Source: a virus
Lineage: Duplodnaviria; Heunggongvirae; Uroviricota; Caudoviricetes
IMG/VR virus record: IMGVR_UViG_2671180460_000010
Location: 1-19,577 of that record
Length of the DNA: 19,577 nucleotides
Reading direction: 5' to 3' (one strand)
Part shown: piece after piece, positions 4,192 through 14,616 of the stretch
How the letters are laid out: each line of letters starts with the position of its first letter
Position numbering within the stretch: the first letter of the stretch is position 1
Made by a program: the position numbers and the translations under genes
The notes under the pieces: model-generated
Told to the model about the DNA's origin: nothing
What the model saw: the letters and a program-made list of their open reading frames with translations, nothing else
Databases searched by the model: none

Positions 4192-4395
4192 TTACGGTGC
4201 TGTTTTAAGTCCTGCCGGGACTTCGTTATTATCCATGCGAATAACTTTATCGACCGGATAACAGTTACCGGGAATTTTCTGTTCATCTGCGGCAGCCATG
4301 CATTCTTTCATTGAGCTGTATACGCCAGTAACCATGTCAACTGGTTCACCGGAAACAAGAAAAACCGTCAGAACAAGTGCAAATGTGGTATTCAT
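4192..4395 (-). CDS. Small hypothetical protein with N-terminal signal-peptide-like hydrophobic segment
   Basis: Internal Met start (MNTTFALVLTVFLVSGEP...) preceded by AGGA. Its ATG overlaps the stop of the upstream gene in an ATGA arrangement (4392..4395), suggesting translational coupling. 67 aa with 3 Cys. Confidence 0.45.
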   Translation of the reverse strand: MNTTFALVLTVFLVSGEPVDMVTGVYSSMKECMAAADEQKIPGNCYPVDKVIRMDNNEVPAGLKTAP

Positions 4396-4580
4396 TGCCA
4401 GTATCCTTTTTGCATCAGGCGTGAACGGGCCATCATTGAAACAATGCAAACCTTATTTAATGAATCCGGCTCATGCTTTATCTGGTTAATGGCATCCTCA
4501 ATAAAAGTTTTATCGCCAGTGATAACGCCAATTTCAAAACGAGTTTCAGGCGTAGTGGAATTGAGTAATAACGTTTCCAT
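4392..4580 (-). CDS. Small hypothetical protein (62 aa)
   Basis: Start METLLLNSTTPETRFEIG with GAGGA RBS upstream; ATGA overlap with the next gene. One arm of a 19-bp inverted repeat lies just upstream of its RBS. Confidence 0.45.
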   Translation of the reverse strand: METLLLNSTTPETRFEIGVITGDKTFIEDAINQIKHEPDSLNKVCIVSMMARSRLMQKGYWQ

Positions 4581-5081
4581 TATCGCGTCCTCAACAATGA
4601 ATTTTGTGATGCGGTGCCTGGTGCCTCCAGGTGACGTTAACCAGTTAACAATTAACGCCGGATACAGGGAACCCATAAACACCCGATACGGGGGAACTAA
4701 TCGCTTTTTAACTGTTCCGCGTGCGCTGAGCCGCATTCACCGCATCACAAAATTCACTTTAAAAATGGCGGACATCAGCCAGCAATTAAACTGATGCCGC
4801 CAAAGGTCAATACTCAACATGGGTTGTTGCAGCGGGGTTGTCACTCAGGCGTATGGTCAACCTGACAACCCGGTGCTACCAATGGGGGTAAGGATAACCC
4901 CGCCATACTTACCGCCGCGCCATTTCGCGGATTGCCACAACCGGAAGCGCACGGTCGAAGAAATCTAACGACAAGCCTTCTAAGGAAAAGAAACCTTCGC
5001 TGTGCGCTTTCGTGTTGTGTGCCTGCTTTTAACCACATCAGGCGAGGTGGTTTCCGTCATTCCCCAACGACAAGAAATTTG

Positions 5082-5087
5082 TATAAT
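5082..5087 (+). promoter_or_regulatory. Candidate sigma70 -10 element (TG-adjacent TATAAT) for the 5119..5637 gene
   Basis: ttTGTATAATcc lies 31 nt upstream of the ATG at 5119. The -35 is weak (ttcccc region), consistent with an extended -10 type promoter. Confidence 0.4.
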
Positions 5088-5118
5088 CCGGATACCCCAA
5101 CAACAAAGAGAGTTAAGA

Positions 5119-5637
5119 ATGCTATCTGGAATAACTTCATCAATAACGGCAATTAAAGTCTCGATTGATTTATTACAGGTAATACTTGATGCAAAAAGCC
5201 AATCTGAACGTGAAAAGGCTGTCTACGAAATGCGTCGCCAACTGGCAGACTTACAAATACAGAACGCAGAGCTAGCGAAAACGCTCGCGCTTCAGTACGA
5301 GGAAATACTCTTGCTTAAGCAAAAATGTCATGAAATTGACGAGCGTAATCGAAAACTTGAATGCTATACGATACACAAAACTGGTTTTGGGCATTTTGTC
5401 TATGCTTTCAGGAACAGCCTCGACGAAGAAGACACATGTTTTCACTATGCCTGTCCCAATTGCTATCAGCATGGTGTAATAGCAATACTTCAACCTGTTG
5501 AAATTGGTGAGCATGATAAGTTCCATATTTCTAAATGCCTGAAATGTGATTCGCGCTTTAAATTTGAACGCAATGATGACTATATACCGCCCCCATCTGA
5601 AGAAGAGATAGGTAGAGCATTGAGCAGCAATCCGTAG
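5119..5637 (+). CDS. Hypothetical coiled-coil protein with C-terminal CxxC...CxxC zinc-ribbon-like motif (172 aa)
   Basis: Start at internal Met (MLSGITSS) with GAGAG RBS. Predicted heptad-rich central segment (QLADLQIQNAELAKTLALQYEEILLLKQKCHEIDERNRKLE). C-terminus has CPNC...(22 aa)...CLKC. Opposite strand to all neighbours, with its own promoter. Confidence 0.6.
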   Translation: MLSGITSSITAIKVSIDLLQVILDAKSQSEREKAVYEMRRQLADLQIQNAELAKTLALQYEEILLLKQKCHEIDERNRKLECYTIHKTGFGHFVYAFRNSLDEEDTCFHYACPNCYQHGVIAILQPVEIGEHDKFHISKCLKCDSRFKFERNDDYIPPPSEEEIGRALSSNP

Positions 5638-5799
5638 GTTATTGCTGTTGTGGATATCCAGATTGTTAAAGAGCATGCCGGAAGGTTATCCGTGTCCGGC
5701 GCACGACCACACGTAGCAGCGTGTTGGTCTCCATTTTTAATTCACCCCTTAATGGAGGATAAAATAATCGTGGTGCTGGTCGGCTCGGTCCCGCAGGTG

Positions 5800-6991: not shown

Positions 6992-7468
6992 TTAAGTACC
7001 TGTCTTGGTGATATTCTGGCTTTTCCGTTTTGATTCTTGATTTTTCAAATAGTTACCTACCTTCATTTCCATTGCGGCAATGTAGGCGCGAACGTCATGA
7101 TCAACCCAACTAGGCTCCGTAGCATTTCCAGATAAGAGGAAAGCTACAATTGCTCTTTTTTCATCAGAGGCGGCTTGATAAAGGCTGTTTATGTCTAAGA
7201 GTTCACTTTTTGTATCTGAAGTGGATGGGGTTGGTATGGGGTATTCGTTAAGCCCCCAATGCTCTGGACCAACCACATCAGAAAAGAAACGCCATAGTTC
7301 TGGAAGTTTGTCTTTACTTATCGAACCTTTCTTAATCCAGTCATGGATTGATGGTGGTTGGACTTTGAAATGACGTGCGATCTCCGCCTTTGATTTGACG
7401 GCCCCTGATGCAATTTTTTTGTTAATGGCCTGCTCTATCGCTCGGCCTAAGTCTTTACCACTAAGCAT
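6992..7468 (-). CDS. Prophage repressor, HTH (XRE-like) family, RacR-like; no C-terminal S24 peptidase domain evident
   Basis: 158-aa ORF with GGAGA RBS. N-terminal HTH-like segment (KSKAEIARHFKVQPPSIHDWIKKG). Sits between mirrored promoters/operators and is divergent from a Cro-like gene. Size and arrangement match the Rac racR-ydaS-ydaT layout. Confidence 0.7.
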   Translation of the reverse strand: MLSGKDLGRAIEQAINKKIASGAVKSKAEIARHFKVQPPSIHDWIKKGSISKDKLPELWRFFSDVVGPEHWGLNEYPIPTPSTSDTKSELLDINSLYQAASDEKRAIVAFLLSGNATEPSWVDHDVRAYIAAMEMKVGNYLKNQESKRKSQNITKTGT

Positions 7469-7520
7469 TGCTTAATAGTCTCCTATGCGTATCGCGTTAG
7501 GCAATCCCTATCTTTAATGT

Positions 7521-7570
7521 ATTAGGCATAGCCTATTGACAATGATATTAGGCGCAGCCTAATATCATTG
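7521..7570 (+). promoter_or_regulatory. pR-like early-right promoter with operator palindromes (OR-like)
   Basis: -35 TTGACA (7536..7541), 18-nt spacer, -10 TAATAT (7560..7565). A 31-bp perfect palindrome CAATGATATTAGGC-gca-GCCTAATATCATTG (7540..7570) overlaps the promoter. A second site ATTAGGCatagcctATTGACAA (7521..7542) is the exact reverse complement of 6877..6898. Confidence 0.6.
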
Positions 7571-7592
7571 TGTGTTTTTTGGAGTTCACTCG

Positions 7593-7916
7593 ATGAAAAA
7601 AGAGAACTATTCATTCAAACGAGCTTGTGCTGTTGTCGGTGGGCAATCAGCAATGGCTAGGCTTTTAGGTGTATCACCTCCAAGCGTAAATCAATGGATC
7701 AAAGGTGTACGTCAGTTACCTGCTGAGAGATGTCCTGCGATTGAACGAGCAACAAAAGGTGGTGTCCTGTGTGAAGAACTTCGTCCTGATGTTGATTGGT
7801 CATACTTACGACGCTCGTCATGTTATTCGCAGAATATGTCGATGAAGCAACCAAATGACGAAAACGATCATACCCGAAGCATCAAGAGGCAAATGATTCA
7901 TGAAAATCAAGCATGA
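7593..7916 (+). CDS. ydaS: Cro-like HTH regulator, YdaS family
   Basis: Start at ATG 7593 with GGAG RBS. HTH signature (ACAVVGGQSAMARLLGVSPPSVNQWIKGVRQLP). Divergent from the repressor, and its stop overlaps the start of the next gene. Confidence 0.8.
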   Translation: MKKENYSFKRACAVVGGQSAMARLLGVSPPSVNQWIKGVRQLPAERCPAIERATKGGVLCEELRPDVDWSYLRRSSCYSQNMSMKQPNDENDHTRSIKRQMIHENQA

Positions 7917-8325
7917 ACACATCCGCATGGCGATGAATGCCTGGGCACATCTGAACGGTGAAAAAGTTCCGGCTGCGAAAATTACCAAAGCGTATTTCGA
8001 ACTGGGTATGACGTTCCCGGAACTGTACGACGACAGCCATCCGGAAGCCCTGGGCCGTAACACCCAGAAAATTTTCCGCTGGGTGGAGAAAGACACTCCT
8101 GATGCGGTTAAAAAAATTCAGGCGTTGTTACCAGCGATCGAAAAAGCGATGCCGCCTCCGCTGGTGGCCCGAATGCGCAGCCACAGTTCCGCTTATTTTC
8201 GGGAGTTGGTAGAGACGAAGGAACGGCTGGTGAAAGATATTGATGATTTCGTTGCATCAGCGATCGTTCTGTTCGATCAGATGAATCGTGGTGGCCCGGC
8301 AGGAAACACTCTGGCTGTGCATTAA
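7900..8325 (+). CDS. ydaT: YdaT-family protein (CII-like / putative toxin of the debated YdaS-YdaT pair)
   Basis: 141-aa ORF starting MKIKHEHI, overlapping the YdaS-like gene by 17 nt. Same position as ydaT in Rac-type immunity regions. Confidence 0.7.
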   Translation: MKIKHEHIRMAMNAWAHLNGEKVPAAKITKAYFELGMTFPELYDDSHPEALGRNTQKIFRWVEKDTPDAVKKIQALLPAIEKAMPPPLVARMRSHSSAYFRELVETKERLVKDIDDFVASAIVLFDQMNRGGPAGNTLAVH

Positions 8326-14122: not shown

Positions 14123-14344
14123 GAAGGAAACAAACAGAAACAACAATTGCCGTTATCTGTTGCCACCAATGACAAGTAAACGTATCTCAGGCGAGCGCAT
14201 TGCGCCGTTCTGACGCGGATACATTAGCCTGGGCAGAAGGTTCTGGCAATAAAAAATAGCGTTTTCTTATCGGTGTCGGTAAGATTGTTGCGGGTGCTTG
14301 AGGCTGTCTGCCTCGGGCATGCCACTGTAAGGCAGACAGAGAAA

Positions 14345-14447
14345 AGCCCCAGTTAACATCACGCGTCCTGCAAGACGCTTAACATTAATCTGAGGCTCAA
14401 TCCATGCTGAACACATGTAGGTTAGCCTCTTACGTGCCGAAAGGCAA
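14345..14447 (-). ncRNA. Putative Sok-like antisense RNA and its promoter (type I antitoxin)
   Basis: Minus-strand promoter: -35 TTGCCT (plus coords 14442..14447), 17-nt spacer, -10 TAACCT (14419..14424). The architecture mirrors the R1 sok promoter, which sits antisense to the hok leader. The 3' end is not defined. Confidence 0.35.
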
Positions 14448-14460
14448 GGAGAAGCAGGCT

Positions 14461-14616
14461 ATGAAGCAGCAAAAGGCGATGTTAATCGCCCTGATCGTCA
14501 TCTGTTTAACCGTCATAGTGACGGCACTGGTAACGAGGAAAGACCTCTGCGAGGTACGAATCCGAACCGGCCAGACGGAGGTCGCTGTCTTCACAGCTTA
14601 CGAATCTGAGGAGTAA
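14461..14616 (+). CDS. hok: Hok/Gef-family type I toxin (51 aa)
   Basis: MKQQKAMLIALIVICLTVIVTALVTRKDLCEVRIRTGQTEVAVFTAYESEE is a near-match to the Hok/Gef family (HokD/RelF-like). The leader GGTGCTTGAGGCTGTCTGCC...AAGGAGAAG parallels the hok mRNA fold-back elements. The in-frame upstream extension from 14404 may correspond to a mok-like translational coupling frame. Confidence 0.85.
   Translation: MKQQKAMLIALIVICLTVIVTALVTRKDLCEVRIRTGQTEVAVFTAYESEE

Follow-up and report, generated by a model that had tools for sequence, protein, structure and literature searches.

The region under study lies directly upstream of dicB, a gene for a cell-division inhibitor, on the minus strand of the window (the whole stretch of DNA that was analysed, 19,577 nt in length). 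Downstream, dicB is adjoined by a DUF1482 gene (Pfam). The ORFs further left match positions annotated as exonuclease, excisionase and integrase in the closest genome, that of E. coli C5, and a Rac-like YdaS/Cro and YdaT pair is found to the right of the cassette. According to this gene order, the window contains the early-left arm of a lambdoid prophage. Places that match the 761 bases round the feature, with an annotated dicB, occur in 4,732 of 5,426 complete E. coli genomes (RefSeq annotation). Moreover, the region can be aligned, nucleotide for nucleotide, with ydfC-dicF-dicB in the Qin prophage of K-12, at about 85% identity overall. The features of the region are listed in Table 1.

Table 1. 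Features of the dicF-dicB region, in the order in which a leftward transcript would contain them (positions in the window).
Feature	Position	Strand	Evidence
Long interrupted hairpin A	4934-5022	minus	Fold; conservation across subtypes
GC-rich middle domain of the long DicF precursor, including GGGUUGUCAGGU.../...GUGACAACCC and GGGGU/ACCCC	4815-4930	minus	Fold; near-identity with K-12
DicF-like sRNA, seed variant	4761-4812	minus	Sub-threshold Rfam match; alignment with K-12 dicF; terminator hairpin 4767-4801, U-run 4761-4765
P1 5' arm (AGUGAAUUUUGUGAUGCGGUG)	4738-4758	minus	Inverted repeat; covariation on alignment A2
Hairpin H1	4719-4734	minus	Folds; just past the conserved GGUG-AAU that ends the P1 5' arm
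Hairpin H3 (10-bp stem, 7-nt loop), directly 5' of H4	4633-4659	minus	Minimum-free-energy folds; covariation
Hairpin H4 (CCUGG-AGGCA-CCAGG)	4617-4631	minus	Inside motif CACCNGGAGGCACCNGGCAC (4614-4633); Rfam STnc100 alignment
P1 3' arm (CACCGCAUCACAAAAUUCAUU)	4596-4616	minus	Inverted repeat; covariation on alignment A2
dicB, cell-division inhibitor gene, 62 aa	4392-4580	minus	Pfam PF05358 (DicB), 99.8 bits, full length; RefSeq dicB in homologues; alignment with K-12 dicB

The genomic setting differs from that of K-12 Qin in two respects. The immunity region (6992-8325) is Rac-like here, whereas K-12 has DicA/DicC: Pfam identifies a YdaS/P22-Cro-like gene at 7572-7916 and a YdaT-like gene at 7900-8325. 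Consequently, the dicB cassette of the window would answer to a repressor other than K-12's DicA. A 158-aa minus-strand ORF with no Pfam match faces the YdaS/P22-Cro-like gene. Secondly, ydfC is absent. Just upstream of the DicF cassette, where K-12 has ydfC, a plus-strand ORF of 172 aa (5119-5637) opposes the minus-strand early-left unit. It has a good ribosome-binding site, two CxxC pairs near its C-terminus and no Pfam match, and a longer, GTG-started form of it is annotated as hypothetical in E. coli C5. A promoter scan of positions 4300-5700 returned no sigma-70-like site and thus we propose no internal promoter for DicF or dicB.

Upstream of dicB the region carries a copy of DicF. The initial annotation had recognized a minus-strand intrinsic terminator at 4767-4801, and this is borne out: the hairpin is followed by A-UUUUU-AAAG and a terminator scan detects it, with the hairpin at 4771-4798, although the scan itself found 2 sites against 1.5 expected by chance. 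It had also considered a small RNA ending at about 4757, which proved essentially right, as a permissive Rfam scan and the alignment with K-12 point to a DicF homologue ending in the U-run at 4761-4765. The match to the DicF model (RF00039) spans 4766-4812 on the minus strand and the full model (1-52), with 34.7 bits and E = 1.3e-5, below the gathering score of 48. K-12 DicF reaches 76.7 bits with the Rfam model. Compared with K-12 DicF, the copy in the window misses 7 nt at its 5' end (the UUUCUGG region) and has a different loop, which accounts for its low score. Its context is the one expected for DicF: it immediately precedes dicB in an early operon of a prophage, ends in a hairpin and U-run, and aligns column by column with K-12. 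An Rfam search, which had been suggested as a check, thus gave a divided answer. DicF and STnc100 both gave specific minus-strand matches in the permissive scan, but at gathering scores the only family in the window is the sok antitoxin RNA (RF01794). The latter lies at 14292-14466 on the plus strand (114 bits; gathering score 59) and suggests a hok/sok-type toxin-antitoxin locus in the same prophage.

The seed-variant DicF falls under the Rfam gathering score and escapes annotation. It is also rare: near matches to it are present in only 18 of the 5,426 complete E. coli genomes, the best with 98.1% identity over part of the query, and none of the matches listed carries an RNA annotation. When prophages are compared, the loop proves hypervariable, in contrast to the hairpin base, U-run, AAAG and P1, which stay constant. 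The loop that pairs with ftsZ in K-12 is altered here. When duplex energies of the K-12 and variant DicF were computed with RNAduplex against ftsZ positions -60 to +40, they were inseparable from those of shuffled controls. Binding of DicF to Hfq is known from the literature on the K-12 copy. DicF-type RNAs with the same scaffold (GGCGG...CCGCC base, U-run, AAAG and P1) and very different loops and seeds were found in the window and in five further loci (L011, L022, L065, L082 and L241), and several of these variants fall under the Rfam gathering score. Copies of the E. coli dicF-dicB spacer with 82-84% identity were also seen in Aeromonas phage AP1 and Actinobacillus phage vB_Apl-pPE4. These are unexpected for such hosts and may reflect contamination or chimeric assembly. 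In two other prophages (L016, 4747-5234; L087, 5482-5670), a 119-aa ORF region with matches to isrK and C4 antisense RNA takes the place of dicB after dicF and the long-stem element. Thus, the dicF/long-stem cassette appears to be a module placed before varied cargo.

On the other side of DicF, the GC-rich hairpins reported between 4836 and 4930, GGTTGTCA/TGACAACC and GGGGT/ACCCC, are present in the minimum-free-energy fold. This middle domain is absent as a block from the other subtypes of the DicF cassette, and covariation gives no test of its hairpins because the sequences that carry it are few and barely vary. For hairpin A, conservation extends to other cassette subtypes: its 24 pairs have 88% of their cells paired and include 5 that changed on both sides. 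A DicF species of 190 nt is described as RNase III-dependent in K-12 (PMC10448788). By comparison with K-12, RNase III probably cuts in hairpin A to generate the 5' end of this species, at about 4947 in the 3' strand of the hairpin, a position that we deduce from the length of the RNA.

The minus-strand RNA is strongly folded, as the initial annotation had proposed to verify: the energy of 4830-4560 is -106.4 kcal/mol, with z = -6.5 relative to shuffled sequences, while the plus strand folds less well (-87.4 kcal/mol, z = -4.5). This RNA contains an element of 163 nt (4758-4596), closed by the helix that we call P1 and containing H1, a variable middle, H3 and H4. P1 has as its core a perfect 19-nt inverted repeat that had been noticed in the sequence: TGAATTTTGTGATGCGGTG (4598-4616) recurs, exactly reverse-complemented, at 4738-4756, and the two arms are 121 nt apart. 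Even with up to 3 mismatches allowed, the 19.6-kb window holds no third copy of the 19-mer; 0.01 matches would be expected by chance, and none of 200 shuffles contained 2. One G-U and one A-U pair join the 19 Watson-Crick pairs, giving a helix of 21 bp (4738-4758 with 4596-4616). In K-12, P1 shows a C-to-U change in each arm, so that two G-C pairs become G-U, while the helix of the window is Watson-Crick over 19 bp. The interior of the element also differs, with an 11-nt insertion in the window.

To gather relatives of the element, we searched public collections of viruses and genomes for the H4 motif, and 21 diverse long-stem homologues were aligned (alignment A2). The covariance analysis across homologous prophages that the initial annotation had called for came out in favour of the helix. 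Complementarity is kept while the arms change: both sides have changed in 12 of the 21 pairs of P1, and the share of paired cells is 98.6%. In control structures shifted by 1-3 columns this share is 34-42%, and none of 500 shuffles equals what was observed. In three groups (L036, L124/L137 and the dicB type) the arms are completely dissimilar in sequence but still form a helix of 20-22 bp. Inside the element, H3 shows changes on both sides in 5 of 10 pairs with 90% of cells paired, and H4 has one compensatory pair, U-A to G-C. H1 is 100% paired and almost invariant in A2, and therefore gives no covariation evidence. The wobble pairs are informative about the strand: there are 34 G-U cells against 3 A-C cells in P1, and 56 against 6 in H3. 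Only folding of the minus-strand transcript is expected to produce this asymmetry, and we therefore assign the structure to that strand.

This same evidence makes it hardly credible that the arms are DNA sites, either looping paired operators, as had been suggested, or a cruciform, to which the prophage repressor or some other regulator would bind: two identical inverted 19-bp sites, 121 bp apart and near the start of a toxic gene, would suit such a role, but homologues keep the complementarity and not the sequence, the excess of minus-strand G-U over A-C cells is expected for RNA and unlike DNA sites, K-12 itself has the two wobble changes, the arms lie about 2.3 kb from the Rac-like repressor/Cro genes, and no further copy of the 19-mer exists in the window, immunity region included. 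The pattern that defines an operator pair, one sequence conserved among homologues and repeated at the regulated promoters, was not found, and looping operators are ruled out by the P1 covariation, the G-U asymmetry and the lack of the 19-mer in the immunity region.

Three ORFs overlap the region, a 116-aa ORF on the plus strand (4444-4794), a 114-aa ORF (4392-4736) and a 65-aa ORF on the minus strand (4841-5038). That any of them is a real gene is very improbable. They are open, and a comparable antisense ORF of 111 aa is open in K-12, but that one is unannotated there, and the K-12 annotation includes none of the three. Pfam gave no match for the 116-aa or the 65-aa ORF, the latter is closed in K-12, and the 114-aa ORF is dicB extended upstream through the structured element. 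Moreover, insertions and deletions in the spacer of the aligned homologues are not in triplets. The remark that the 116-aa ORF is probably spurious was thus a reasonable one, this ORF being mostly antisense to dicB. From their sequences, the 116-aa and 65-aa ORFs are most likely not genes.

The position of P1 relative to dicB deserves attention. As stated in the initial annotation, one arm sits just upstream of the ribosome-binding site of the small gene: the P1 3' arm stops 4 nt before the dicB Shine-Dalgarno sequence (GAGGA, 4588-4592; AUG at 4580). The helix could in principle serve chiefly in translational control of dicB, if an extension of P1 paired the U-run with UUGAGGA, hiding the ribosome-binding site until an RNase III cut or melting freed it. 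Predicted folds do lengthen P1 by 7 A-U and G-U pairs that would cover GAGGA, and other long-stem subtypes also extend toward the downstream ribosome-binding site. The computed probability that the Shine-Dalgarno sequence is unpaired rises from 0.27-0.34 in the uncut RNA to 0.54 after the predicted cut. However, this effect on accessibility is small, the extension consists solely of weak pairs, and the computed accessibility of the start codon is unchanged. We consider it unlikely that such control is the main function of the helix. The earlier proposal of a structured 5' leader or attenuator holds in outline. An RNA helix does lie in the leader of dicB (identified by Pfam with 99.8 bits), but its documented role in K-12 is RNase III processing, not attenuation.

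RNase III acts on unbroken RNA duplexes that extend over about two turns of the helix, some 20 bp or more. P1, with 21 bp kept by covariation, has this length. In K-12, according to PMC5069750 and PMC9438474, later papers that cite Faubladier et al. (1990), the 53-nt form of DicF obtains its 3' end by Rho-independent termination and its 5' end by RNase E, while a 72-nt form has a 3' end further downstream that is produced by RNase III processing of the full-length operon RNA. The position 19 nt past the annotated end of the 53-nt K-12 DicF (L002:2954, column 17 of A2) falls 10 bp from the top of P1 and 11 from the bottom, and its equivalent in the window is about 4747 (range 4742-4747). As the annotated 53-nt DicF stops before the U-run, the K-12 cut could lie up to about 5 nt deeper into the arm, still within P1. 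Given the cut that the K-12 literature describes and the near-identical helix, the 19-bp repeat can be regarded, by comparison, as the probable orthologue of an RNase III site that has been known since 1990.

The likeness to K-12 Qin dicBF extends to the whole cassette. Both have, in the same order, a long hairpin, a GC-rich precursor, the DicF terminator, U-run and AAAG, the 21-bp helix with its inner hairpins, the Shine-Dalgarno sequence, dicB and a small gene. Hairpin A, the middle domain and P1 are nearly identical in the two, and the published termination, RNase E and RNase III processing fits this architecture. We conclude that the whole region is very probably the dicF-dicB segment of the early-left operon of a Rac-like lambdoid prophage, transcribed leftward, with P1 as an RNase III substrate whose cutting parts DicF from dicB. 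The feature is the DicF processing cassette upstream of dicB, which is well known from earlier work.

The course of events would be as follows. A leftward RNA would contain hairpin A, the GC-rich domain and then DicF with its Rho-independent terminator. Polymerases that read through would transcribe the 163-nt multi-hairpin element closed by P1 and, 4 nt on, the ribosome-binding site and start of dicB. In this read-through RNA, P1 would be cut by RNase III in mid-helix, the cut that yields 72-nt DicF in the K-12 copy, and DicF would be separated from the dicB message. A cut with a 2-nt stagger on the other arm would place the 5' end of the dicB mRNA near 4605, so that its leader would measure about 25 nt. 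The paired cuts would also free the inner element, still closed by a stub of about 9 bp, as long as the closing stem usually is in STnc100/PasD RNAs. The read-through route could be a minor one, because the DicF terminator may stop most transcripts.

Helices of about two turns that are cut by RNase III lie between the early cistrons of other phages, in the lambda N leader and sib and in the spacers of T7 early mRNA. Their cutting separates the RNAs and can alter translation or stability of the downstream message. Unlike those helices, to which it has no sequence relationship, P1 closes a multi-hairpin element and comes directly after an sRNA terminator. The prophage products DicF and DicB stop the host cell from dividing and also change metabolism and sensitivity to phages. 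The way in which the operon RNA is cut matters, therefore, as it sets the dose of each toxic product. For this window the practical value of the analysis lies in annotation, and current understanding is not overturned. The additions are modest: covariation proof of the helix and of its strand, the link to STnc100, a bimodal closing-stem length that goes with the presence of a coding gene downstream, a rare, unannotated DicF variant, and variable loops on a constant scaffold.

The link to STnc100 (RF02076) comes from the permissive Rfam scan, in which this family matched 4561-4777 on the minus strand with 37.1 bits (E = 2.8e-6), below the gathering score of 47. The K-12 copy is likewise not listed at that score, and a long-stem relative (L138) just passes it with 47.8 bits. 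Motif CACCNGGAGGCACCNGGCAC is the most conserved part of STnc100 and is present in more than 240 fetched loci of Enterobacterales prophages and phages. The core architecture of the family was found in the window: a closing stem with GGUG/CACC at its top, AAU followed by H1, an H3 of variable sequence, and the invariant hairpin CACCNGGAGGCACCNGGCACC stacked on the 3' arm. The overall span is given as about 90-125 nt for both. Across 182 elements, the 5' consensus is GGUGAAU. Typical members of the family score 50-132 bits, are often arranged in tandem arrays of three or four beside tRNA genes, and have a closing stem NNNN-GGUG...CACC-NNNN of 6-9 bp with clear covariation in its variable part. 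The element of the window departs from them in its 21-bp closing stem, in its H1 (GCGGC...GCGC.CGC here, CCCCC...GGGG in the family), in its score, and in its neighbours, dicF and dicB, where the others adjoin tRNA arrays or the late region. The dicF-dicB element is best called a divergent relative of STnc100/PasD, rather than a curated member.

The closing-stem length is bimodal: the stem has 5-13 bp in 146 distinct elements, and in a further 28 it has 20-30 bp. A ribosome-binding site with an ORF of at least 30 aa lies within 90 nt downstream in 27 of the 28 long-stem forms versus 13 of the 146 short-stem forms, an association that is overstated, as is its nominal P value, because the 28 long-stem elements are not phylogenetically independent.

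It is tempting to speculate that the spacer element is mainly a functional sRNA itself, of the STnc100/PasD class and associated with Hfq, which the long stem merely serves to excise, the separation of DicF from dicB being a by-product. The STnc100 architecture runs throughout the element, from GGUG-AAU, H1, the variable middle and H3 to the invariant H4 motif and the CACC that starts the 3' arm, and this core is conserved although RNase III would need the helix alone. The cut mapped in K-12 would leave a stub of 9 bp, the modal closing-stem length of the family, and a long-stem form does pass the gathering score of the family, whose typical members are high-scoring and arrayed. PasD and STnc100 have been detected as stable RNAs (PMC8550237, PMC12370729), and a 2026 preprint, in which DicF is unmentioned, ties STnc100 to PasD sRNAs of pathogenic E. 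coli. On the other hand, the window and K-12 copies are under the gathering score, and both are devoid of the tail and terminator that the sRNA form has at its 3' end (model positions ~170-206), being followed at once by the dicB ribosome-binding site. In the window the Rfam alignment is poor there, the Shine-Dalgarno sequence comes 4 nt after the 3' arm, and the element is without its own tail because it is embedded in an mRNA leader. A literature search found no published RNA species from the K-12 dicF-dicB spacer, and the invariance of H4 in our sample is partly built in because the loci were fetched by that motif.

Weighing these points, we find a main role as an sRNA possible but doubtful, and processing at P1 remains our preferred explanation. 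Equally tentative is the corresponding view of the operon, that the dicF-dicB "spacer" is a third product, an STnc100/PasD-class RNA of about 140 nt that RNase III would excise from the read-through transcript with a closing stem of about 9 bp. If this were true, the family, which is very widespread among prophages, would have two modes of release: short-stem copies would occur in tRNA-like arrays or as terminated sRNAs, and long-stem ones in mRNA leaders from which RNase III frees them.

Two other identities were considered for the element and rejected. ARAGORN found no tRNA or tmRNA, and the closing stem with H4 is tRNA-like in resemblance only. Matches of phages P7 and D6 to the interior had brought up the C4 antisense RNA of P1/P7, but the match lies in the ban operon and not at c4. 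P1-like phages do carry an unannotated relative of the element core, at 2501-2616 of the P7 locus (L243) and 2501-2621 of the D6 locus (L244). In the ban operon it is flanked by tRNA genes and tciA/terB, and the coding start follows after about 40 nt. STnc100 tandem arrays of three or four copies were observed near or among tRNA genes, sometimes about 6-10 nt from a tRNA 5' end, in five loci (L013, 2265-3380; L172, 894-2010; L029, 342-1253; L196, 110-1688; L218, 3717-5512). This arrangement suggests that the arrays are co-transcribed and processed with the tRNAs.
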